Shown here one piece after another: positions 14,086 through 61,964 of a DNA stretch of 64,000 bases. A program made the position numbers and the translations under genes. The DNA is taken from the NCBI GenBank assembly GCA_964187785.1, contig OZ076409.1, forward strand, positions 20,710,001 through 20,774,000, in the 5' to 3' direction. Below the pieces are notes generated by a model. That model saw only the letters and a list, made by a program, of their open reading frames with translations. It was not told where the DNA came from and searched no databases. Each line of letters begins with the position of its first letter. Within the stretch, counting starts at the first letter, position 1. This DNA comes from Amphiscolops sp. MND2022. Lineage: Eukaryota.

Positions 14086-14631
14086 TGTTGGCGCATGACA
14101 TCAAAATGATCGCGCAGTAATTATTAGTCCACTTAGCACAGTGGATCAGTCTTTGCCTTCAAACAGGTCTGCGCGAGTTCGAATCTGCGACAGTGCTCTT
14201 TTTAGTTTCTCTGTCCATTTATTCTTTCACCTTTAAATTTGATCAATCATTTTGCTTGACAACAATTACTTTGCTCATTTCATGTACAATATTTACCACC
14301 CATTGCTCACTATTGTAAACGTTGTTTTTACATACATGTAAACAACCAGTTGAGACTTTTTTGTTGCCCCTTTGGCTTTAAATGCCTAATTTGCTGGTTA
14401 ACAAGCTGCTAACAACCAGTTCCTCACTATTGTCTCTAACCTCACTCATTTATATTCATACCGTTACCGTGATAAGAAATCGTCAATAAACGTTATCAAT
14501 CTTAGTCTTCTTGTTTGAGAACAAGACCTCAATCTTTAGCTTGAACTCTATCTTTGAGTTCCCTCAATCTATCTAGTTTGAACTCTATCTTTGAGTTTCT
14601 CCGTATTAGCTTGAGAGCTACCCCCAAAACA
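14086..14631 (+). repeat. 5' LTR of young BEL/Pao element
   Basis: TG...CA termini; direct repeat of 19740-20285; followed by PBS. Confidence 0.97.
14128..14203 (+). promoter_or_regulatory. tRNA-like Pol III cassette in LTR (second copy ~19782-19857)
   Basis: A-box-like TAGCACAGTGG, B-box GAGTTCGAATC (14175-14185), followed by TTTTT; not a canonical cloverleaf. Confidence 0.6.
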
Positions 14632-14632
14632 T

Positions 14633-14650
14633 TGGAGACCTCGACGTGAT
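14633..14650 (+). promoter_or_regulatory. Primer binding site, tRNA-Trp-like
   Basis: TGGAGACCTCGACGTGAT 1 nt after the LTR; 16/18 match to the recalled tRNA-Trp PBS TGGTGACCCCGACGTGAT. Confidence 0.75.
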
Positions 14651-17600
14651 GTCAACAGCAGATGGATCAGGAGGTTCAGACGGCTCTGGTGGTGAGATGA
14701 AGTTGCCTCAGCTCAAACGATCAAGAGGGGCTCATCGCGGCGTCTTCACAAGACGGGCAGCAGCAATCCGGCAAGCTGGTGGACCGCTCGAGGATGTTCA
14801 AGCCACATTGGAGTTCCTGATTGATCGTCGCAAGATGCTGACAGAGTTGGATTCGCAGATCCAACAACTCATTGATGACGACGATGAACTAGTAGCCGAT
14901 ATGGAGGAAGCGGCTGACGTGTTCATGGCAGCCAAAAGGGCTGTGAAGTTGTGTCAGGGCAAGATAAAAGAGATGCAGCCTCCAAGCATAAGCGGCGCGG
15001 CGGCTCCATCAAGTGGCAGTCTGACGACCAAGCTCCCCAAGCTGACCCTTCCTTCATTCAGCGGTGAATATACAGATTGGGTCTCTTTCTGGGACCAATT
15101 TACAACCTTGGTTGACAGCAAACGTTACATGACCAATGTTGAGAAGCTATCTTACCTCAAGCTGGCACTGAAGGGTGATGCAGCTCAGATAGTTTCATCT
15201 TTGTTGGTCACTGATACCAATTACGACATCGCCAAGCGTAAGTTAGAGGAGCGCTACAACAACAAGCGATCAATCGTGAAGGCGCACTTGGCGGCAATTC
15301 ATGCCCTACCAGCCATCAAGAAGGAGTCAAGTGTCGAACTGCGCAAGTTACTGGAGTCGACCAATGAACATGTGCAAGCACTAGAAGCCTTAGGGCTTCC
15401 TGTCGATCAATGGCATGCAATACTTGTGTACTGGCTGCTGGAGAAACTTGATGCTGAGTCGAGGAAGCAATTTGAATTGGCTCATCCTGGCACAGATATG
15501 TTAACATTCAAGGAGTTAACTACATTCATGGATAGACGAAGCCGTGCATTGGAATCAAGCGGCGACCAGCATGAGGCTTCCGTCCCCAAGACGACGCCTA
15601 AGAAGGTGCTTCAAGAAGCATACTCCTCAACTGTTGAGCACTCAACGAGTTTTCAGATGAAAGAATGCAGTGGGTCACACTCAATCTCTCAGTGTGATCG
15701 CTACAAGCAGCTGGGCACGCGTGAGAAGAAGGCAGTCGTGAGGAAGCTCAAATTGTGCATGAATTGTCTGGGGCGGCATTTCGTGGCTGATTGTCCATCG
15801 AAATTCAGCTGCCGCACTTGCAACGGGAGGCATCACACATCGCTGCATTTTGATCGTGCTGTCGAGCAGCAAAGTGGTGTGACAAGTGGTGCAACGTTCA
15901 GTGGTCCATCTGTGCTTCTCTCAACAGCAATGGTTGGCATAGACGACACAGCTGGAAAGACATTGATGTTCCGAGCCCTGCTGGACTCTGGGTCTCAAAC
16001 ATCCTTCATCACCGCAGACGCTGCATCAAAACTCAATCTTGCACGTTCAACAGTAGACGTGAAGATCTCTGGGATTGGTGGACGGCAACAAGCAGCCAAG
16101 GAGTCTGTCAGTCTCCTAGTGGGTCCACAAAAGTTGCCTGTTACAGCACTAGTGCTGAACTCAATTGCAGGTAATATACCGTCTCAATCAATTAACTTAA
16201 AACAACTAAAATCAATGAAAAGTGTAGCACTAGCAGACAAAAACTTCCATCAACCTGGCCCCGTTCAATTGCTGTTGGGCGCAGATGTGTACGAAGATCT
16301 CTTTCTGGGCGAGAGGAAGAAGGATCATGGGCTTCACTATCGCAAGTCTATCTTTGGCTGGGTGGTCACTGGAGTGTTGTCCCAAGTGCGTGCCTACCAA
16401 TGTCAATCCTTTCAAGTTGCAGTGGAACTGGACCTTGCTCGCTTCTGGGAAGTTGAAGAGATTCCTCGAGTAAAGCCGATGTCTAAAGAAAATCGTCAAT
16501 GTGAGGAACATTACGATACCACGACATATGTGGCAGATGACGACCGCATCACTGTTCTTCTGCCTTTCAAGTCTCAGGCACGTCCCTCAAACAACTTCCA
16601 AACAGTAAAGCAGAGATTGTTCGCTTTGGAGCGAAAACTCAAGGACCACGGTGATGTGAAGCAACAGTATCGCGACTTCATCAAGGAATTTGTAGACATG
16701 GGTCACTTGGAAGAAGCTCCTCAGACTTCAGGCTTGTGTTACTACTTACCCCATCACTGTGTGTTGAAGGATAGTACAACAACAAAGCTCTGTGTCGTGT
16801 TCGATGCTAGCAGCAAGTCCCCAAATGGCTATTCTCTCAATGACTGCTTGCTGCTTGGACCCCGCTTACAAGACGATGTATTCGACATCCTCATCCGCTT
16901 TCGCCTACACCAATATGCCTTGTCGGCCGATGTCGCAAAAATGTACCGACAAGTGGCTCTAGACGAATCAGATCGTAACTTTCATCGAATTCGGTGGCGT
17001 GACTACGTGACAGATGAGATCCGAGAATTGCGTATGACCCGTGTGACGTACGGTGTTGCCAGCTCCTCCTACCATTCAACCCGAGCACTTCAAGAAAGTG
17101 GCAAAAATCATGGACCCAACCTGAATACAGTGAATGTGATTCTCAATGACTTCTGGGTTGACGATCTACTTAGTGGAGCAGATACATTAGATGAAGCATG
17201 CGTGCTTCAAGACGATCTGATTGAAACCCTCAACAAGAACTGTCTTCCACTACGCAAGTGGAGCAGCAATGAACCCCAATTGGTCACCCGTCTTCCGAAA
17301 GATCTTCAGGAAGCTGGTAAGGCCTATGAAATCAACGACAAAACCCATCAAATCAAAACACTTGGACTGACGTGCCACCCTACAGAGGATCACTTTGTGT
17401 ACGCATGTAGTAGTGAGTATGTTTCAACCATTACAAAACGAACTTTACTCAGTGATTTTTCAAAGCATTTTGATCCAATTGGCCTCATAGCTCCAGTTCT
17501 CGTAGTAGCCAAGACCATCATTCAATCGTGCTGGAAGTTGGATCTCGAGTGGAACGATGCAGTTCCAAATGATGTGTCACGGGCATACACAAACTGGAAA

Positions 17601-18236
17601 GATGACATGGTCTCGCTATCACAACTCAAGATACCCCGGAAGGTGCTACCAATCCACTTGTACGACGAAGCATCCTTGCAAGTCTTTTGTGATGCCTCGG
17701 AAAAGGCATATGGTGCCTGTGTCTATTTGGTGTCAGTAAAAGATGACATCGTCTCCTCAACCCTCATCTCCTCCAAATGCAAGGTGGCTCCGATCAAACC
17801 CTCAACTCTCCCTCGACTCGAGCTCTTGGCAATTCACACTGGTGCCAAACTTGCAACAGCAGTCAAGGGGGCACTATCAAAATCGAAGCACGCATTGAAC
17901 ATCTCTGTGCTGTACTCAGACTCAACAATCGCCCTCGCATGGATCAAGGCAGACCCTGCTCGATGGCATACATTTGTGTCAAACCGCGTGTCCCAAATTC
18001 AGTCAATGCTCCCAACAACTGAATTCATTCATGTACCCTCAGAGAAAAACTCAGCAGATCTGTGCTCACGGGGACTGCTAGCAACGCAATTGGTGGCTCA
18101 GCAGACGTTCTGGTTTCAAGGGCCATCGTGGTTGGGATCATCATTTCCTGACCAACCTCAGACTCTCCTCACAAAGGAGGAAGCCCGCCAAGAAGGCAAA
18201 ACATTGACAGTGCTAACTTCGCCTGTAATTCGTTAG
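14649..18236 (+). CDS. BEL/Pao gag-pol polyprotein (Gag, zinc knuckles, aspartic protease, RT, RNase H)
   Basis: ~1195-aa ORF: KLPKLTLPSFSGEYTDW, CMNC...H...C...CRTC...HH, LLDSGSQ, YYLPHHCV, FWVDDL, FCDASEKAYG, YSDS, NSADLCSRG. Confidence 0.95.
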   Translation: MSTADGSGGSDGSGGEMKLPQLKRSRGAHRGVFTRRAAAIRQAGGPLEDVQATLEFLIDRRKMLTELDSQIQQLIDDDDELVADMEEAADVFMAAKRAVKLCQGKIKEMQPPSISGAAAPSSGSLTTKLPKLTLPSFSGEYTDWVSFWDQFTTLVDSKRYMTNVEKLSYLKLALKGDAAQIVSSLLVTDTNYDIAKRKLEERYNNKRSIVKAHLAAIHALPAIKKESSVELRKLLESTNEHVQALEALGLPVDQWHAILVYWLLEKLDAESRKQFELAHPGTDMLTFKELTTFMDRRSRALESSGDQHEASVPKTTPKKVLQEAYSSTVEHSTSFQMKECSGSHSISQCDRYKQLGTREKKAVVRKLKLCMNCLGRHFVADCPSKFSCRTCNGRHHTSLHFDRAVEQQSGVTSGATFSGPSVLLSTAMVGIDDTAGKTLMFRALLDSGSQTSFITADAASKLNLARSTVDVKISGIGGRQQAAKESVSLLVGPQKLPVTALVLNSIAGNIPSQSINLKQLKSMKSVALADKNFHQPGPVQLLLGADVYEDLFLGERKKDHGLHYRKSIFGWVVTGVLSQVRAYQCQSFQVAVELDLARFWEVEEIPRVKPMSKENRQCEEHYDTTTYVADDDRITVLLPFKSQARPSNNFQTVKQRLFALERKLKDHGDVKQQYRDFIKEFVDMGHLEEAPQTSGLCYYLPHHCVLKDSTTTKLCVVFDASSKSPNGYSLNDCLLLGPRLQDDVFDILIRFRLHQYALSADVAKMYRQVALDESDRNFHRIRWRDYVTDEIRELRMTRVTYGVASSSYHSTRALQESGKNHGPNLNTVNVILNDFWVDDLLSGADTLDEACVLQDDLIETLNKNCLPLRKWSSNEPQLVTRLPKDLQEAGKAYEINDKTHQIKTLGLTCHPTEDHFVYACSSEYVSTITKRTLLSDFSKHFDPIGLIAPVLVVAKTIIQSCWKLDLEWNDAVPNDVSRAYTNWKDDMVSLSQLKIPRKVLPIHLYDEASLQVFCDASEKAYGACVYLVSVKDDIVSSTLISSKCKVAPIKPSTLPRLELLAIHTGAKLATAVKGALSKSKHALNISVLYSDSTIALAWIKADPARWHTFVSNRVSQIQSMLPTTEFIHVPSEKNSADLCSRGLLATQLVAQQTFWFQGPSWLGSSFPDQPQTLLTKEEARQEGKTLTVLTSPVIR

Positions 18237-44286: not shown

Positions 44287-45138
44287 TTTACCTTTATATC
44301 AAAGCAGCTTTTAAAAAATTCCACCTGTTGACTGCATATTGGCTGGGTTGAATAGTTTGTTGGTTGTTTTTTTTGTTACTGGTATAGTGGCTGGTATGGG
44401 GTTCCCTACTTTCCACTGCTGAAACTTGTATGTGTTGATGTGGTGTTCTCTACCCATCAAGGTTACTTCAAACAAGTGTACGGTGTAGCTATGGGCAGCC
44501 CCTCAGGTCCCCTTCTCGCAAATGTGTTCATGTCAAAATTTGACAAGGATCTAGGCTTCTTCAGTCCCTTCTATTATAGATATGTGGACGACATACTGAG
44601 AACTATGTTGGTAGGAGGAGGAGAAAACCTGTTGAATTTTGCGAACACAATGCATCCAAATCTCAAGTTTACATTGGAAAGTGAGGATAATGAAGGTGCA
44701 CTATCATTTTTAGACATGCGTGTGGAGCATGTTGGGAACAAAATCGAAGCCTTATGGTACACCAAAAAAACGGACACTGGTGTTGTTCTCAACTACAACA
44801 GCGAAGCAACAAACATTTTCAAGTCTGGCATCGTATCAGGTTTCGTACATCGCATATTCAATACATGCTCTTCGTGGCCTAGATTTCACGATGGACTGAT
44901 GAAAGCACAGAAGATTTTACGTGACAATCAATATCCCACTGGTTTTATTGAAAAAATTACCAGTCACACCTTGGACAACATTTTGGCACCGGTGAAGAGT
45001 GGTCTTCCTGCGAAGCTGAATTGTCCGAAGGCTGATTTGAACATCGGTTTAAAGTTAATGTACAATGGGCCGTCATCAATTACCCTTGCCAAGAATCTGA
45101 AGAAGACCCTAGAACCATTGGCATCACTCAATGTCTTC

Positions 45139-45305
45139 TATAACAACCCAAGCTCGACATGATTGTGAGAAAATAGCCATTACAGGACTCGAACCTGCAT
45201 CTCAAGACAGATCTAGCTAGCAGTCAAGTGCCTTAACCCTTAGACCAAATGACTTATTTAATCTCACCAATCATTCGACTTATCACTAACAACGCTGTTG
45301 TTATA
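45139..45305. mobile_element. 167-bp solo-LTR-like insertion with 4-bp TSD CTTC and an internal tRNA-like cassette (minus strand)
   Basis: Terminal IR TATAACAAC/GTTGTTATA; removing it and the hAT restores the PLE frame NVFFTTTKL; minus-strand TGGTCTAAGGG and GGTTCGAGTCC boxes. Confidence 0.75.
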
Positions 45306-46812
45306 CTTCTTTACAGGGTTTCCAAGTACTTAGTTTAACGACGAATTGGTATTTGTATATTTGGTCTAGCAGTTAATTGTATTTGGAATTGGTCCGAAAA
45401 TAAAAATTGTATTTGTATTTGCTGTTTGGGCAATTACAAGATTTGAAAATTGTATTTGAAATTGGTATTTTCAATTGACAAAAATCGACATTTTTTCGAT
45501 TTTTTTTCAAAAATGCGACAAAAAAATGACATTGTAACGTTTTAATTTTTCAAAATCTGCACATTGAGTTTGAAATTGCGGGAGTGCGTGTAGTGAGAAA
45601 AAACAAGGAAACCAACAGCGACCATCTAATCTAAAAAAATTTTCATGATTTCTGAACGCGCGGTCGATCATATAACGGGGGCATAAACTGTATATGGATG
45701 GGCTGCCTGGTGAAAACAACATAGATGGTACGTACATTGAATTAAATGACAAAACAGGATTTTAAATAACAAACCTTAACAACTTCAAACCTCAACAACA
45801 AGAAACTGAACTAAACTCAAGAGTATGGCAATTAAGGGGAGAAGAATAGAAAGCTCAGTTGAATAGCAGCTTGTTCTTAGCAATAAATACGTTTCGCTCG
45901 TGTATCTGGGGGCTCATACGCCTTTGCAAATAGTTTTTTGATAGACGACCCAGTGAAAACAACCTTTCAGCGTCCACAGTTGACGGTTTGAAATTCGTGA
46001 GATAAGGCAGTATGTCAAAGTCAGATTCTTCGTTTGACTCGCTGTGGTTCAATTGGTTTTCAAGGTCTTTGAAAGTAGAAAGAGACATAACTTCAGATGG
46101 CGTATAGTCATGCCCTGAAAAAACTGTTGTGATTTGCTCTGGTTCAGGCAGACAGGTTTGTTTGACAAACTCATAGAATGGACCATTTCGGAATAAAATG
46201 CCCGTCGCTACTGGATTAGAAGAAAGATGTTTCATGAAAAGCTCATTTATTGGTGACTAAAGAGACTTCTCTGCTCTTGAATTCAAAAGCAAAATGAGTT
46301 TGTCAACGATAAAATGGTACTCCTCCTCAAGACAATTATTCAAAGAATCGAATGAAACCTCGGTAATCCCCAATCTGCGATAGAAATACTGCAAAGTTTC
46401 AGGGTTCCATGGTTATTAGCCGTAACAATAGTTTGACACTTTATACACTTCCGTCGTTGTGTTTTCCGTCCATTTCGGAACTCACACAAGAAAAACTTTT
46501 GTTTCAGTATGTTCCACTGGGTATTGTCAGCTACGCAAAGGTTTTCGGATTCCGGCTCCACCGATGCCTCAGGCTCAGACGACAACTCTACCACCGAATC
46601 AGACATCAACTGAAAAAACATAAAATCATGCTAACCAGAAAAACAGCATGAGAAAGTTTCTTTTAAAAAAGAAACTTCAAAAAATAGTAGTCTAAAAAAC
46701 AACACAACATTTTTATACAACAAATCTAAGCGTGTACCTAACCCAGCTGAAAATTCGAATTTTGATTTCTAAAATCGTAATTGGAATTGGGTTTGCTATT
46801 TGGAGGGGGTAC

Positions 46813-48631
46813 CTCAACACTGAGTACCCGCACGCTCCGACGTTTTTCGGCGAGGCATGTAAGGTCGCCAGAAGCACAAAAATCCTGGGATTGATTGTGG
46901 ACGACAAACTGAATTTCAACGAACACCTACAGCAGGTAGAAGGGAAAGTTGCTAAACAGCTGAACATATTTGAAAAGTTTTGCGGCTCTAATTGGGGTCT
47001 AAGGCAAGCAACGCTCATAAAGCTTTACAAAACTCTAGTGCTCCCCCGACTTCTGTACGCGGCCCCTGTGTGGGCCAGGAAACACGTTCAAGCACTGAGC
47101 CGTTTTCAATACACCGCGCTCAAACTTATCATAGGTACAAGTACGAAATTCGACCAGTTGGCAGCAGAAATACTGTGCGGTCTCCCGCCTATGCAATTAC
47201 AAATTGACATAATCACTATTAATTTTGGAATCAAGCTCTCTCAACAGCAGGACATATTCTGGAAACTGTACCGGAAATGTCAATTGCCGGAAATAAAAAG
47301 CGATAAAAACCTCATTAACAATTTTTATAAAGTCACAGGAGCAATAAATTGTTACACGGTGTCAACTTGCAATGAGTACCTGAGAAGTAGATGGAACAGA
47401 ATATTCAAGAACGCGCTCACGACTACCCCACTGGATTGGTCAATCACTCAAATTGAATTGGAAGGGATTGCCTATCCAAAAACGACAAGCAGACACCTAG
47501 AAAGAACTATCAACAAGCTCCTTTTGAATTGCAACGTGGAACTGGCAGAGTATGCGTACAAAATTTGGCGAGCGGAGACTCCGCTCTGCCCTTGTCGAGA
47601 AGAGGCAGAATCAGTCACGCACTACTTATTCTTCTGCCCCCTGTACGAGCAGTTTCGTGCGCCCGATTTTGTCGCAGGAAACATCTATTCACTTACCTGG
47701 ACCACGAACCTGAAAAATTTCATCATAGATTCTGGACGTTTCGAAAGAAGCACAGAAAGGAAGCGACACTTTCAAGAGAGTACTCGACTACTAAAGACTC
47801 ATAATTTTTGAGGCTATGACTAACAGACCTTCAACTTTTACTTTATTTACTCAGAACTGATACCAAGTGGGTGACACGAAACGGGTCGAAATAATCCGGT
47901 CGAATTGCAAGGGCGAAACTGTGATCGAACGAAATTGATCGAAGTAAAATGATCGAAGAAAATGGTCGAAAGTTTGCAAAAAACGGACCTATACCGAATA
48001 GAAAAATAGGAAAAGCGTCGAACAACTAGAAAGTGGTCAGAATTGCTCAAAAATGTCAAAACGTTCAGAAATGCGATTTTTTGCATAATGGACGAACTTT
48101 AACGCGGTTTTTTTTTAGTACAAAACGTGCCTCGGATATGTCCCCATTTCCTCTAGTGCCCCGCGGCCCCTTGGGGCTGCTTATATTCCCATCTTGCTAA
48201 GCGAGGTCGAACAGGAGCAAAGACATAGCGGGAACGGAGATCGCGAAGCGATCGTAGTGGGAGCTGGTCTTTGCGACGGTGAGGGCGAGCGTGCATACAT
48301 CGCATATGCCCCACATTATATAAACTAAAAGTCTCTGCCATTTGATGTGTTCACGACCGCGGTCACCCATAACCAAACCTGAAATTAGATTAAATAAGAT
48401 TGTTGGTTAATTTTTTCGACTAAATTCTATCTTGAAAAGCAGTTCGACCTTAATCGTTCGATCAAAAAATGCTACATATTCAATTTCGACCCAATTATTT
48501 TTCGACCAGTTTCGACCTCAGTTTTTTCGACCAAACTTTTTCGACCTGGTTATACGTCGCCATACCAAGTGCCTAAAACATAATTGTTAGATTAACCCGC
48601 AATTTAGGGGTTGTGTAGATTCTATATATAT
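46813..48631 (+). mobile_element. 5'-truncated LINE (RT thumb + CCHC C-terminus) with (TA)n tail and 9-bp TSD AGGGGGTAC
   Basis: KILGLIVDDKLNFNEH, YKTLVLPRLLYAAPVW, CPC...E..THYLFFC in ORF ending 47811; TSD 46804-46812 and 48632-48640. Confidence 0.88.
47870..48561. mobile_element. MULE-like MITE with GGTCGAA/TTCGACC inverted arrays and GC-rich core, 10-bp TSD ATACCAAGTG
   Basis: TSD 47860-47869 and 48562-48571; imperfect TIR GGTGAC.../...GTCGCC. Confidence 0.88.
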
Positions 48632-49209
48632 AGGGGGTACAAGTACTTGGAATTGGGTATTTGGTTTTCGACAAAAATAGTATTTGAAATTGTATTTGGG
48701 TCCGATTTTCTCCTAATTACTTGGTATTTGGGCAATTACTTGATTTGCTATTTGAAAACCCTGCTTCTTTACCACCACGAAATTGATGTCAAACTTGCCT
48801 AGCCTGAAAGCAGTTGTTCCTAAACCTATTCGGAGTCGTCTTGTATACGAAATAAGTTGTTCTGCTTGCTGTGGAACCTATGTTGGACAAACCATCCGAC
48901 ATTTAGACGTCCGAATACGCGAACACAATAACAAAAGCACGCCAGTGGGCCAACACTTCTCCAATTGCGGATTGGAATTGAGCTTGGAAGACGTGCGAAT
49001 ACTGACAACTGAAAAGCATCCCAAAACCCTATTGGCACTTGAAGCTGTACTCATTCGTAGAAAGAAGCCCATCCTCAACACGCGCGACGAATTTGGAAGC
49101 CACACGCTGAACTATGTTTTTTTAATGTGGCAGTAGTTCTGCCCTGTAATCATTTAGTGATTGTACAAAACCTGGTTTTGCAACTAAATGTTTTTATTTT
49201 AGATACAAT

Positions 49210-51517: not shown

Positions 51518-52068
51518 TAGGGGGAACCAAATGCTATAAATGCTATTAATGCTATAAATGCTATTTTCTCTTACATTTTGAACTTAATTGCTATTTTGTC
51601 TGTCGCCTGAAAACCAATATTATTTCACACGATAAATAAACATACACTTACTTACTACTTATTTTGTTGGACACCTTGAATGCATAAAGCAAATAAATAT
51701 AACACGCCTACTCATCTTTGTTGTATTTTAAGATCAACTATGCCTAAAATACCGCTTACTAAGCATGAGAAATCTTCAATTTATGCTCAAAAATATCCAT
51801 CGGAATTCCGTGTTTTACCAAACGGAGAATTAATTTGTAAATTATGCGACAAGCCCGTTAACTCGGACAAAAAGTTTGCTATCGACAACCACCGTTAATT
51901 GTAATTAACAATATGCATCCAAGTAATTGTTTTTTCAATAGTTTTTGGGCGAGTAAAATACAAAAAAATCAATTTTAAGTGCTATTTTTAGTGCTATTTT
52001 AAAGTTTTTTGAGTGCTATTTAATAGCGCTATAAAAACGTTTGTTAGTGCTATTGTTGGTCCCCCCTA
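51518..52068 (+). mobile_element. Internally deleted hAT-like element, 8-bp TSD CTCATTAC
   Basis: TIR TAGGGGGAACC / GGTCCCCCCTA; TGCTAT subterminal repeats; N-terminal zinc-finger remnant LICKLCDKPV...KKFAIDNH. Confidence 0.88.
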
Positions 52069-52348: not shown

Positions 52349-52544
52349 CAGGGGTGGTTTTAGGATTTTCTCAACGGGTGGGCGGATTTTCCAAATGTGG
52401 GGCACACAGTAACGAGAGCACCAGTTGAATACTTGAAAGTAGGAAAACTCGGTTCATTTTACCGGCTGTGTCATCAATTCATTTTATGCATCTCCAAAGG
52501 GGCAGGCTGCCGCCTTCCCAGCACCCCCCTTAAAACCGCCCCTG
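52349..52544. mobile_element. hAT-type MITE, 8-bp TSD ATCTTTCT
   Basis: TIR CAGGGGTGGTTTTAGG / CCTTAAAACCGCCCCTG; TSD 52341-52348 and 52545-52552. Confidence 0.9.
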
Positions 52545-55500: not shown

Positions 55501-56657
55501 TTTCATTATACTTCTTGTCCAATTCCAAAAGCAGTCTGTCGTCACTTATAATTGAGGATCATGGCCAGTATCCGGCTTTGATGAGTCCTGTCCGGCAGAA
55601 CGGAAATTTTCCTGTCTATTGCATCTCTACTATAGCCGATATACATGCTGTCAGCACCGTCTATAGTGAAGTTTCTCAACGTACAGTAGTGTTTGAAAAG
55701 AATGAGAGATTGACTACATAAAACCGCCAACTTTGACATCCAATATCTCAATCAATTACAAGTTAACAATTTTGTTTGAAAGTTTTGTTTCAAAATTGAA
55801 TCTAGATTACAGATGTCATTGTTTGGAAAATCTTTGACAATTAATTAGAAAATTAAAGAGGACCCTTTATTTGTTTTTATAATTATTTTAAATTTAAACC
55901 TATACAATTATATATTTTCCATTCAATGAAAATTGATTTTGAGCGCAATTTTCGTATGAGTTCAAAAAGTATCGTTGGTTTAGGAAGTGCGAAACCTTTT
56001 GATTGAATGTATCTTTCGGCTTCATATCAGCCAATAATATTGCAGATTTTAAGTAAATGAGCGTTATCATTCATTGCACGTTATCAAACAGGGCACTAAA
56101 AGCTCCATTCTTTTTTAAACACTACGCATGTTGTAGTTATCTGGTTCTTTCTTTCGCAATGAAAAACCATCCAGCGTAACGTTCAATTCAGGCACCAACT
56201 GGTCTCTTGTGCATCATCGCTGTATTCGAATTTATTCTGGTGCTTACCACGTGTGGCAGTTTTATGCGGTAAGAATGTAAAAGATGCGTTTCGTAATGTT
56301 GTAAAAATGTCATTTTATTGCTTTTCACGTGGAGGAACACGTTTCCAGGCATCAAATTAAGACGTCAATAATCGGCGTTATCTGAAAACAACTCACTGTA
56401 ACATGAGAAAGTTCATTCAACATTGAACGTCTCATCTGGCCTTTTGTCTACGATGATGCAATATTTTGGACGCGAAATTTGATTGGTTGCCGAAAATGCG
56501 GAAAACATGCAAGAATGTGTAAGCGCAAAAAACTGCCGTGTCTGCCTGCTGTTGACGCACTATACGCGATGCTGACTGTATACTAATGCAATCGAGTGGA
56601 GGAAAAAAAGTTCTGTGAATTGGTATTGGCTTTGGTTCTGAATCTCACCTTTTAGAC

Positions 56658-59600
56658 ATGTCTTACCGAGTGGTTGTGGCCGGAGGTGGAACTGCGGGAC
56701 TCACCATGGCTATCAGGATGGCACGGGCCATAGGCAAACAGAACGTGGCCCTCATCGAAACCAAGGACACACATTATTACCAGGGATCATCTGCTTATTC
56801 AACACCAAATACCTACTCAATTTCCTACAATTTTTTTATATTTTGCAAGAACAATCCTATCGCGTGCGAATACCGAGCAAAAACATTCATTTCAAGAAAT
56901 ATTGCTGATACACGTGCGTACATTGTTTTCACGACCGAGTATTAGATAATGCTCGTCATTCGTTTCCTCCAACGATTTGCCTAAGATAGTTGGACAGTTT
57001 TAAAAAAGCCCAAAAGCGTTTCTCTTATTCTAATCTCTTCCGTTTTGGTTTCAATCAAAAGTTTTTCACCTTCAGATTGGTTCGAATGGAGACAATTTTC
57101 AAAAGTTTGTTTCCTGGCTGATTTTGGAAGTAGCTAGAATTGTCAATTTTCGACTACTTCGATTATCATTTTTATCAAATTTTTGCATTCAATTCTCTTC
57201 GATTAGACCTTACTCGATAATTGATTTCAAGTAAGTATAACCAAGGGCCCCTCGCGGGCTACCTTGGTGCTAGAGTTTTTACTGCTGGGATCAGTTTTAT
57301 ACTTTTGAATTCCCAAGAAACTAGCGCCCAATTAAATGGGATTTTTAATTTTTTGTTTTGTTCAAAGATTTCTTGAGTCATCAATCTATTAGTTATCGGA
57401 CGTATGCTCAACCATTGTATTCCTAGCTTTACTTTTTTGAATAATTTAATGATTTTCGGAGGTCAATACAATTAAGGTACAAGCAAATTTTTGTCAGGAA
57501 TTGAGTTTGGAACAAGATCAAATTTTTCCTAATGAAATTAGTATGATAATACACAATCAATTACTTTTCTAAAACTGAGGAGGTTGATTATCCCTGGTTA
57601 CCTCTAGCCTATGTGGACTTTAGTGGGCGGGGGTTTGAAGAACTTTGACAAGTGTCACCGACCAATGAGCAGTTTGGTACCCAAAGGACTGCATTGGGAG
57701 AAGCAGAAAGTCAGCCAATTTCAGCCTGCTGAAAACTGCGTTACGCTAACCAATGGAGCTAAGGTTAAATTAATATTCACTCGTTTATGCATTCTTTACT
57801 GAATTCAATTGGTGTCGTCTTTAATTATTGCACATGACGAAGTCAATGTGCATTGCAGTCCAGCTAAGAAAGTTTTTTTTTTCCACAATAGCCAACTTCA
57901 TAATAAGCGCCTTTTAGAGAAAAGCCAAAACCCCAGAGAGATTCGAACCTGCAGCCTCCCGATTGCGCGGCATAAGTGTTAACCACTGTGCCATAAGGAC
58001 GTTATTGAATGAAGTTGAACTGTTGAATATATACGCATGCGATTAAAATAATATATATACGCATATTAAAATAATCGATGTCTTCGTCATGTGTTGCGAA
58101 GCACCGCTTCGCCTCTGTGTTACACTTGCGATAAGCAAGTGTTATGGGAAAGTGCGGGTGCTTTTTTTTCCGCGCGACAACTCGTTTCAGCCCGCAAGTC
58201 GCATAGTTCAGGCGTTCGTGGTCTAGTTGTAAGATGCTTGCTTTTCAACCCAGAGGGCTCGTGTTCGAACCCGTGCATATGCGCTAATTTTTTTACAAGT
58301 ATTCCGAAGCAGAAGATTCTCACTTTTTCGGCACTATGAGATCCCCTTTTCGGCTTTGAGACTTTTTTTCGAAATTTTTCAAATATCCCCAGAGGTTCCT
58401 CCCTTCAATTTTTCTTGGTTTATTTGCAACAGAACGAATGTTAGAAAATCCCAAAGGGTCCCGTTTTTCAGATTTTTCGGCACTATGAGACTGTTAAAAA
58501 TTCTCATTTTTTTTCTAAAACTTTTCAAAGTCTCCAAAAGGTCCCCCTTCATTTTTTTTTGAAATTTCGCAAAACGATGGATATTTAAAAATCTCAAAGA
58601 GCCCCCTTTTACAGTTTTCGGCTTTGTGAGATTTTTAAAAATAATAATTTTTGTCTTAAAATTAGGTTTTCTCAGGCCCAGCACTCTATATCCGATTTTT
58701 TTGTAAAGACCGGTTTTTTTTCTAATTTGTTTTCATCGAACCCCCCCCTCCCGCAATTTTTACCAGAAACGAAACGTTTTGCGAGCATTAAGGACTGCTC
58801 AAGGTTTTCGGCACTATGCGACTTACCGGAGACCAAAAATTTCGAAAAAAATCCTCAATTTTCTGATTTTTGAAAGGTTTTCGTTTGAGAATGATGGGTT
58901 TTTGCTGTTTCCAGTTGGGGTAGAATGGTTTTCGAAAATTTATGCGTATCCCTTTGGGTATTTTTTGGCGCTGTAAAATTGATGAAATTGTAACAATGTC
59001 CGTTTACCCTTGCCTCTCCGTATGATGTTGCTTATTTGGTTTTCTTCAAAAGTTCGCAACTTTCTTCGCAAGTGTTTGCGAAGCACGGCTTCGCCTCTGT
59101 GTATAAATCTGTAAAAGCAGATCTATCAAGTGTTGTATACTTGTTAAACATCGGTTTTCGAGAATTTAGGTTCGTTTGTGACCAGTGTTTGGTTGATTTG
59201 TTCATTGCATCGCCCATTGTGTTATCATTTTAGCTGCATTATGAATATCTGATAGTTGCTCTGGGCTTGGAACTTCAGTACTCGAAGGTGCCCGGCGTGT
59301 TGGAAGGAATGGAAGAAAGCGCCAATGTTTGCAGTAATTATCACTCACTGTATTGTCAGAAAACTTTCAAGGCCATTGAGAACCTGAAAAGTGGACTCGC
59401 TCTTTTCACTCACCCTAACACCCCTATCAAGTGTGCTGGTGCATCTCAGAAGATTTTGTACCTCGCTGAGGAAAGGTTACGTGAGAGAGGGGAGCGACAG
59501 AACGTGGACTTCGCATTCGCGACTCCTGGGCCCGCTATCTTTGGAGTAGAATTGTATGCAAAGGCTCTTCAGCAGATTGTAAAAGAAAGAAATATCAAGA

Positions 59601-60437
59601 CATATTTCAAACACAATCTTGTGAAGCTCGACCACAAGAGAAATCTAGCTGTTTTCAACTCCACGCAAGATGCCGTAAGCTATCTATTTCCCTAATTTCG
59701 TGGGTTCCTTTTCACTGATGTATTGACTGTGTACTGAGTTTGCTAGTTGCACGCAATTTACTCAAGTTCTTACCAGAGTCAGCATTTAGGACAGTTAGCA
59801 TTTACTAGAGTTATCATTTACCAAAGTTTTAGTTTTAAAGATTTATCAGCCTTTCATTTCCGGAAAAAGTTGTCCCTATGGTGTTGTCCAAAGTTTCATT
59901 TTTTTGCAGGAAAATCCTCGAGAAGTTGAAATTGAATACAGCATGATCCACGTCACGCCTCCCATGGCGGCACCTGTTGCTATTCGAGAGAATGTTGACC
60001 TGGCTGCTAAGGATACGGGATACTTGGACATTGACCTATTGACTCTTCAGCACAAAAAGTACCCCAACGTTTTTGGCATTGGCGATAACATCAACATCGG
60101 GGCCACCAAAACAGCTGCAGCAGTAGCCAGTCAGACTGGTGTTGTGGAAGCCAATCTGAGAAGTTTGATGAAAAACCGCAGCATGAAAAGACAATATGAT
60201 GGCTATACAAGTTGTCCCTTGGTTACAGGCAAAGGAAAAGGCCTCTTGGCCGAGTTTGATAAGAATGGGGTGCCTCTGGAAACATTTCCCCTGATAAGAC
60301 AAGATAAAGAAACCTGGTACTGGTATCACCTTAAAGCCACCATGATGCCTCTTCTATACTGGCACGGATTCATAAAGGGACCTTGGAGAGGTCCTGGATT
60401 TTATCGCAAACTCCTACGACTTGGTTTTTCTTCATAG
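56658..60437 (+). CDS. SQOR: Sulfide:quinone oxidoreductase; exons 56658-56783, 57608-57763, 59234-59674, 59910-60437 (~416 aa)
   Basis: FAD motif VVVAGGGTAG, HYYQ|PMWTLVGGG, catalytic PIKCAGASQK and YDGYTSCPLVTG, FGIGD; all introns phase 0; introns 2-3 GT-AG, intron 1 GG-AG. Confidence 0.93.
56781..57596. mobile_element. Old TIR element coextensive with SQOR intron 1
   Basis: CAGGGATCATC (56781) vs GATTATCCCTG (ends 57596), 10/11 inverted match; putative TSD only 4/8. Confidence 0.55.
57828..59102. mobile_element. Composite repeat in SQOR intron 2: TIR-flanked tRNA-like unit (57831-58094) plus Helitron-like unit with terminal hairpins
   Basis: IR CACATGACGAAG/CTTCGTCATGTG; direct repeat TTGCGAAGCAC.GCTTCGCCTCTGTGT at 58095 and ~59077; tRNA-like 58210-58283; TTTTCGGCACTATGAGA subrepeats shared with ~63560-63620. 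Confidence 0.6.
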
Positions 60438-61034
60438 AACCGATTTTTTAATTGCTTATTTTTTGGGACTTTTTCTGATTTTGTTTGTCCGAATAATTGA
60501 AACATGGTGCTTCTCTTTTTGTTGAATTCAAAATCTATACATCATTTGTTTTAAATACATAGAAAGGGTTAGTGCAGTGGTTTTCTAGGATACATATGAG
60601 TGTTAAGAATGAGAGTAAAAACTCTTTGCAATGAGCTCATTCGTTTGATGAATATTTTTTCCATCACTTGGATCTATCGCTAGTATTAAGATTTGATTTC
60701 CAGTGTCGGGGTTGCTAATGCTAATTCGATTGAAATCACACAGGGAAGACATTTTACATTTTCACCAGAGACTGGAAAGATGCTACTCTACATAGTTCGT
60801 GCAGGAGCCTTTACTGTTAAAAATCACTCTGGGCTCAGTTTTTCATGATGAGAAAATCTAGAATGTGGTCTTATGCAGGTACTGTTCACTGAGAGTGGCC
60901 TCTATAGAGCCGAATTAATTAGAATCAAATTTGCAACCGATATTTTTAGACGACAATTATGCACGCTTCCGTTATACAGGATACAAAATGGTAATTTCAA
61001 TATAACTCAAACAAAAATTGGTTGTATGACTCGA

Positions 61035-61964
61035 AGTTAACATGTTTTCGGAAACTTTCTCACCAGCGAGCTCCAACTGCTTACTCACATACTCCGCTCG
61101 AGTCAGGTAGTCAACCATGCTCTCCGTGGGCTCCAAGCGCAGGGTTGTGAACTTCTCCAATAGGTTCATCAACCTCGGTGTTTCGGTGCTGTTGAAGTGG
61201 TCCCGCAGTAGTTGCCATGCCTTCGGACCATCACCCTTGCAGTCGTTCGTCAGCATCAGGATACTGCGGCTGTCATGACACTGTACCAAGTACGCCCAAA
61301 TTTCGTACTTCTTGTCATTCGTGCCAGCATCTGTTCCATTCAGCACGTTCAGTAGCTTCTTCGTGAAACAGAACCCCTCGAATCGCTCCTGCCACACAGC
61401 GAAGTCTTCTTCCTTGCCAGAGAACTGGAGATACTGCAAAGGTCGATCCATCCCTCACAAACTCCAACAAAAGCCCGAAACAGGCAGAAAGAAGTAACTG
61501 AAACAAAAATGAGGGCAGCAAAACAGGGATTCCCACGAAGATAAGCTACAAAGTTAGCGAAAGCGAAACGGCGGGTAACGGACGGCATAAATAGCAAAAA
61601 TTGTGGATATCCGAGACGCAAAAAGGAAAAATGGAGAGCGAAAAATAAGATCAGACGAGCATAGTCAAAGTGAGCAGAAAAAGTTTTTTTAAGGAAAAAG
61701 GCAAACTCACCAAATTGCTGGGCCCATAACCTATTAGGGCCTGAGCTCCTTCTGGTCGTAGCTGGGTTGTCGGAAGATTGGTGAAGAGTGGTTATTGTCA
61801 ATACTTTATTTTGTGTTGTGAGTTGATAAAGTGATTCAGTCAAGTGAAGATAAAATAACAGGTACATGTTTACAAACAACAATAATATACTAAATTAGTT
61901 CAGTCTGGCATAGTCTGAGATGGTTGACCTTTAATGGTCCTATGACCTTCATCGATCTCTAACA
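61035..61964 (-). mobile_element. Truncated Copia: 5' LTR (61732-61964), PBS (61718-61731), gag N-terminus
   Basis: LTR TGTTAG...CTAATA; PBS GGTTATGGGCCCAG; gag FSGKEEDFAVWQERF...DGPKAW...ESMVDYLTRAE. Confidence 0.88.

Follow-up and report, generated by a model that had tools for sequence, protein, structure and literature searches.

GG donors account for about 0.014% of human introns, and a high frequency of them has been described for a single copepod only (PMC5714493). In this species, Eurytemora affinis, 31 GA and 5 GG donors were found among 297 introns, with RNA-confirmed GA/GG donors making up 10–12% (Robertson 2017, PMC5714493). These donors are constitutive and located in lineage-specific introns, and the report gives neither an origin nor an inverted repeat for them (PMC5714493).

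Introners, including hAT-classified families, are DNA transposons with terminal inverted repeats (TIRs) that turned into introns, according to the parts of these studies covered here (Gozashti 2022, PMC9860276; 2025, PMC12130899). Among the first 32 of 63 mentions of hAT introners, the donors are gt, gc, ga or NC, mostly with the entry 'co-opt both', and the supplementary files covered (12 of 14) name no acoel genus and list Eurytemora with 0 families (PMC9860276, PMC12130899). Non-canonical introns derived from MITEs, with traces of TIRs and target duplications and with conserved snRNA motifs, are described for Fritillaria borealis in the covered portions of two further reports (PMC11282704, PMC13326754). 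The maize Ac/Ds elements possess the TIR C/TAGGGATGAAA and generate an 8-bp target duplication, as stated in the part of the source considered (PMC3260210). Unusual splice sites are not mentioned in the searchable portions of two acoelomorph genome papers in which a word search was made (PMC10565955, PMC9911081). Literature on acoel non-canonical splicing, acoel introners and hAT intron gain yielded nothing relevant; transposon-derived introns and GG donors are each known, and no report was found that links both or describes either in acoels, within a literature in which few subscription journals were covered.

Here we analysed intron 1 of an SQOR gene in the acoel Amphiscolops sp. MND2022, contained in a 64,000-nt stretch of contig OZ076409.1 (assembly GCA_964187785.1, positions 20,710,001 to 20,774,000; from here: the window). 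This intron resembles an introner product combined with a Eurytemora-type donor, outside any recognisable introner family. Frequent non-GY donors, an obligate exon-end AG and +3 A and a canonical U1 5′ end are common to this acoel and E. affinis (PMC5714493). In the copepod GA dominates, whereas in the acoel GG outnumbers GA and its invariable GGA(T/C) start matches hAT TIRs, and the acoel junctions come from homology alone. As in introners, the element carries one splice site and the other is recruited at or close to the target duplication but, while introners are defined by multi-copy similarity, the acoel introns are single copy (0 copies for the 2 of 2 GG introns searched), as far as the covered parts of these papers allow the comparison (PMC9860276, PMC12130899). 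In F. borealis most introns are dominated by AG-AC/AG-AT borders, judged from the portions covered, whereas in the acoel about 95% are GT/GC-AG and the acceptor is always AG (PMC11282704, PMC13326754). With maize Ac/Ds, again by the part of the source considered, the acoel elements have in common the superfamily, the C/TAGGGATG end and the 8-bp duplication (PMC3260210). Euglenid nonconventional introns have variable borders without spliceosomal signals, in contrast to the invariant AG|G...AG borders of the acoel, so that the pairing of the ends alone is common to both. In the portion of the maize Ac/Ds literature that was examined, no case was found in which the AG|GG of the TIR itself acts as donor. 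The maize Ac/Ds introns attributed to Dennis (1988) and Giroux (1994) reportedly have GT donors located inside the element or the target.

The gene model and the features of intron 1 are compiled in Table 1.

Table 1. Features of the SQOR gene and of its first intron (window positions)
Feature	Position	Strand	Remark
SQOR gene	56658–60437	+	four exons, ATG at 56658, 416-aa ORF intact with stop
Coding exon 1	56658–56783	+	42 codons, last codons TAC CAG; from homology
Intron 1	56784–57607	+	824 nt, GG-AG, phase 0; homology-best junction; single copy in the genome
Exon 2	57608–57763	+	begins CCT ATG TGG
Intron 2	57764–59233	+	GT-AG; position same as in the paralog
Exon 3	59234–59674	+	from homology
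Intron 3	59675–59909	+	GT-AG; boundary set by hand, none given by the caller
Exon 4	59910–60437	+	includes the stop
Left inverted-repeat arm	56781–56791	+	nt 1–3 form the Gln codon, nt 4 is intron +1 of the GG donor
Right inverted-repeat arm	57586–57596	+	10/11 complementary to the left arm; predicted pairing with the donor region
Putative left copy of 8-bp target duplication	56773–56780	+	now coding; 4/8 match to the right copy
Putative right copy of 8-bp target duplication	57597–57604	+	decayed
Acceptor TAG	57605–57607	+	presumed to descend from the original Gln codon

The first-pass annotation of this DNA had proposed that the conserved YQP.W motif requires the joining of TAC CAG (ending at 56783) to CCT ATG TGG (from 57608) across an intron starting with GGATCA. 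Sequence and homology agree with this junction, which gave the best alignment to six homologs among the 46 in-frame donor-acceptor pairs enumerated and exceeded every GT/GC option by a large margin; YQP.W was present in 118 of the 120 homologs compared, and of the two without it, one is an N-truncated isoform. The placing of the read-through stop (56943–56945) and of a GTAAGT at 57231 was likewise correct. Judged from homology, the GG donor at 56784 is very probably in use. That a nearby canonical donor is used instead, or that the assembly has a G in place of a true T at 56785, appears very unlikely. The one sequencing run found, with a share of 0.05, gave no coverage of the junction. The next-best donor, TCT|GC at 56793, keeps the frame when joined to this acceptor, but its score of −4.8 is lower than those of all 274 GT donors (minimum 0.3) and all 13 GC donors (4.3–10.7) sampled, and it would place GSS into the otherwise uninterrupted motif; no good in-frame GT/GC donor exists at this intron. 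A base-call error at 56785 is improbable because a complementary CC is present in the right arm, and because the GGA(T/C) start recurs in 11 other introns. Hallmarks of U12-type introns are an RTATCCTT-type donor and a strong branch site. Assignment to this type was rejected: the donor reads GGATCATC, and sliding of the junction never yields AT-AC or GT-AG.

The coincidence of the intron with a CAGGG...CCCTG inverted repeat was confirmed, the arms matching at 10 of 11 positions and the right arm ending 11 nt before the acceptor. The start of the left arm is the same as in intact hAT TIRs of this genome, and the minimum free energy fold of the intron closes the TIR-TIR stem. The arm pair is absent from the 25 longest repeats returned by a generic repeat finder. 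The proposed geometry, in which the CAG of the TIR serves as the Gln codon, the target duplication is 8 bp long and the original NAG is turned into the acceptor, agrees with this intron and is matched exactly in 5 of the 12 GG introns collected below. The 8 nt followed by TAG after the right arm stand as described, and so does the 4/8 match between the putative duplication copies; for the SQOR intron alone, however, this match is not significant, as 4/8 or better was also reached in 37 of 274 GT introns. The recommended search for other genomic copies returned only the locus itself in the 1.07-Gb genome, and no interior similarity was detected between the intron and the hAT transposase families with TAGGGATG ends.

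We compared the position of the intron with a second SQOR paralog of the genome, 74% identical to the window copy, and with metagenome loci. The paralog lacks an intron at YQ|P and the site is continuous in 49/49 metagenome loci, therefore SQOR intron 1 was most likely gained. Nine of the 49 loci break into non-coding sequence five codons upstream, at a widespread intron position from which the YQ^P site differs. The paralog has its own phase-1 intron elsewhere, starting AAG|GGATCT; the GG model was the best of 18 in-frame options, less decisively than in the window copy, and an alternative GC donor scores 5.5 but would damage a helix. Exon 1 of the two copies is 83% identical at the amino acid level (pS 0.93, pN 0.11), similar to the remainder of the gene (overall pS 0.82, pN 0.15); by these ratios the window copy is under purifying selection relative to the paralog. 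The closest named homolog is from Symsagittifera roscoffensis, with which both copies are placed in the tree. An ACTL6 protein of the genome is 79% and 77% identical to clusters with Convolutriloba macropyga and S. roscoffensis, compared with about 53% for other animals, which places the genome with an acoel other than these two; the ACTL6 of a close relative is 93% identical.

A hAT insertion that is spliced poorly or not at all, leaving the window copy dead or dying and its function to the paralog, would be suggested by the existence of a second SQOR and by the scores of the donor (3.5) and acceptor (2.9), which are among the weakest of the GG class, with 5 U1 matches and an acceptor below the 5th percentile of GT introns (3.6). 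We consider this quite improbable: the insertion is old by its 4/8 duplication match and the lack of copies, yet the remaining gene is intact, as first annotated, with 416 codons without stop or frameshift, the best model of the paralog also needs a GG donor, and further GG introns lie in otherwise open exon chains of actin, tubulin and dynein genes.

These further introns come from a sample located by protein homology alone in actin, tubulin, HSP70 and dynein genes, that is five gene families together with SQOR. GT/GC-AG junctions were taken if within 9 points of the best junction, whereas GG/GA donors required a margin of at least 10; the paralog SQOR GG intron was added by hand. Before counting, 63 junctions were left out (31 for low identity, 27 for gaps, 5 unresolved), and in dynein 139 per-reference gaps and 150 clusters (143 whose references were too few or too weak, 4 that stayed unresolved and 3 lacking a common candidate). 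Among the 303 introns kept, the donors were GT in 274, GC in 13, GG in 12 and GA in 4, a GG share of about 4% (95% CI 2.1–6.8%), with GG rarer in dynein (3/198) than in the other families (9/105). All 12 GG donors read AG|GGA(T/C), and G at +1 and an AG acceptor were present throughout. The exon-end AG, invariant here, occurs in 164 of 274 GT introns, and +3 A, again in 12/12, in 113 of 274.

At the 3′ end, RTCCCT, complementary to the GG donor start, was found within the last 30 nt of 6/12 GG introns but of 0/264 GT introns (p = 2e-9) and was absent from a control window further upstream in the GG introns; ATCCCTG with at most one mismatch occurred in 9/12 versus 6/262. The spacer between right arm and acceptor has its mode at 11 nt (5/12), the others being 8, 9, 9, 14 and 16 nt, with two ambiguous; later indels are therefore needed for the seven that are not 11. 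Across the 12 GG introns, exon bases −11 to −4 matched the intron at the predicted offset in 35 of 96 comparisons (permutation null 24.6, p = 0.004). Of 13 offsets compared with GT introns, only 11 gave p < 0.05, and this p = 0.037 fails a 13-fold correction, though 11 was the offset predicted beforehand. In one GA and one GC donor (d11 q1350, d10 q1475) the right arm mismatches the +2 base. Four of the 13 GC-AG introns start with GCACG and two end with the same TGACGTCAT motif (GC introns in L060, L071, L079, d6, d10 and d11), perhaps representing a second element family.

GG/GA introns were not significantly more often unique in position than GT introns (p = 0.17). Two of 10 GG positions are common to another paralog, and one of these matches two GT introns in actin: at position 116.7 (L059, L061, L085) one paralog has a GG donor and an inverted repeat while two others have GT donors, through either GG-to-GT normalisation or parallel gain.

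Potential source elements exist in the same genome, with at least 150 matches to the hAT dimerisation domain. Young transposase-bearing families carry TAGGGATG ends, the TIRs of paired young copies start with TAGGGATGG, TAGGGATGTG, TAGAGC, TAAGCC or TAGTGC, and 8-bp duplications were present wherever both ends were in view. In 2.06 Mb of partly redundant DNA there were 16 intact elements that have YAGG ends and an exact 8-bp duplication, and 0 with one of 7 or 9 bp; their median length is 456 bp, and one begins with CAGGGATGG. Three of the 16, all ending in YAGGG, lie in the window itself (45314–48763, 51518–52068 and 52349–52544). GG is found at the would-be intron positions +1/+2 in 32/32 element ends, but +3 A in only 9/32 compared with 12/12 introns (p = 1e-5), an enrichment that matches a filter by U1 reading. 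T at target position 2 occurs in 13/16 intact elements but in 3/12 GG introns. A genome-wide copy search with the best-preserved GG intron, in tubulin, returned only its own locus, as for the SQOR intron, and local BLAST of the non-GT introns detected nested interior repeats only. The pattern of right TIR, 8 nt and YAG had 121 matches versus 60 for the reversed control, an excess inflated by one repeat family; none of 30 pattern loci examined was a young, perfectly duplicated insertion within an exon that could be recognised, and Pfam gave no match for two candidates.

GG starts occur together with paired hAT-type ends, and such introns are therefore likely old transposon insertions; we regard a hAT origin as quite probable. 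SQOR intron 1 is probably an old, decayed hAT (Ac/Ds-type) miniature transposon with the left TIR CAG|GGAT as donor. The initial proposal of an inverted-repeat element as intron is supported, with the amendment that the intron is one member of a genome-wide class and not a lone oddity. In the mechanism that we propose, a hAT element with (C/T)AGGGA(T/C) ends would insert into an exon and duplicate 8 bp. Where an NAG follows the target, splicing could proceed from TIR base 4 to that AG, 8 + 3 = 11 nt beyond the right TIR, with the CAG of the element replacing the original codon and the frame restored exactly. The canonical U2 spliceosome would take G at +2 given an exon-end AG and +3 A, so that only AG|GGA TIRs would persist as introns. 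Predicted TIR-TIR pairing in the pre-mRNA may bring the weak donor beside the T-poor acceptor. The interior would then drift until copies become unrecognisable, and some donors would drift to GA or GC, with the right arm retaining the old GG complement.

Pairing of the 24-nt 5′ segment with the 3′ end had a median of −17.4 kcal/mol in GG introns and −7.7 in GT introns (p = 3e-8), and about half of the 13 GC introns pair end to end as strongly as the GG introns. Pairing is also stronger within each GG intron than between its 5′ segment and the 3′ ends of other GG introns (−12.6 kcal/mol, p = 3e-4). A TIR-TIR stem could hold the ends together and mask AGs located 22–25 nt upstream of the SQOR acceptor, or may have persisted as a passive relic. 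Because TIRs differ between families, the intron-specific pairing is compatible with both. That the hairpin is required for splicing is, in our estimate, a nearly balanced question with a slight leaning against it.

This intron-specific pairing would also suit an explanation that needs no transposon, in which the GT of ordinary introns mutated to GG and the right arm evolved later or was selected for splicing rescue. The actin position common to GG and GT introns and the lack of element copies for the two GG introns searched point in the same direction. We nevertheless judge it unlikely, for it does not lead one to expect that all GG donors start GGA(T/C) just as local hAT TIRs do, that the spacer is most often 11 nt long, that a trace of a duplication is present or that GA/GC donors are mismatched to their right arm, and the specificity of pairing could equally be inherited from family-specific TIRs.

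Among at least 23 U1 matches (42 of 17,560 candidates scored) no U1 5′ end complementary to AG|GG was found. The U1 copy L108 was considered as a GG-adapted U1, as wobble pairing would be possible, and was rejected as a pseudogene because it scores 36 bits, is present as a single copy and has broken stems. U6 was without adaptation to GG, with the usual ACAGAGA box in ten full-length copies among the 12 of 19 loci viewed. Removal by a non-spliceosomal, structure-guided route resembling that of euglenid nonconventional introns is hardly credible: the stable end-to-end stem and the T-poor acceptor region of the GG introns (0.37 vs 0.53, p = 1e-5), which also have weak acceptor scores, would suit it, but 12/12 keep the +1 G, exon-end AG, +3 A and terminal AG, the features read by U1, U5 and U6, and their mean U1 complementarity is near that of GT introns (6.7 vs 7.0).

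If the hAT origin holds, the GG donors of this genome carry a readable origin in which the donor is a transposon TIR and the geometry predicts the position of the acceptor, which offers a concrete and testable path by which an animal could gain introns exactly. They also form a natural experiment on the tolerance of a +2 G by a spliceosome whose U1 and U6 are canonical. About 5% of introns (GG + GA, 16/303) would escape standard annotation in this genome, and introns missed in this way would truncate a sizeable share of acoel gene models in early-bilaterian phylogenomics. A more far-reaching possibility, which we put forward tentatively and with more doubt than confidence, is that in an acoel lineage the reading of the universal hAT end (C/T)AG|GGA as a 5′ splice site became a standing route of exact intron gain, in which the hairpin is required and replaces the polypyrimidine tract and on which thousands of introns depend; it may also explain the GA/GG donors of Eurytemora.

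Some minor observations concern the spliceosomal RNA genes and the surroundings of the SQOR gene. The U1 genes L098, L104 and L105 begin with ATACTAACC, for which GTTAG donors would be pairing partners; GTTAG is the commonest GT start in the sample (43/274). In the U1 copies L092, L099 and L106, which belong to different subtypes, a common upstream sequence replaces the first bases, as if a single element had inserted at the 5′ end of U1. A divergent U6-like match (L309) on a small contig (C439) is unlike the ten chromosomal copies and possibly belongs to another organism. In the window, LTR retrotransposon ORFs were noted at 14610–18236 (Pao-type), 44356–45162 (RT-bearing) and 60972–61454 (Copia gag). 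In S. roscoffensis 30% of genes are SL trans-spliced, according to the searched part of its genome paper (PMC9911081). A TTTTAG ends 2 nt upstream of the SQOR ATG (56650–56657), and the SQOR protein is without a mitochondrial presequence; from its sequence, this TTTTAG could be a trans-splice acceptor or the acceptor of an upstream exon.
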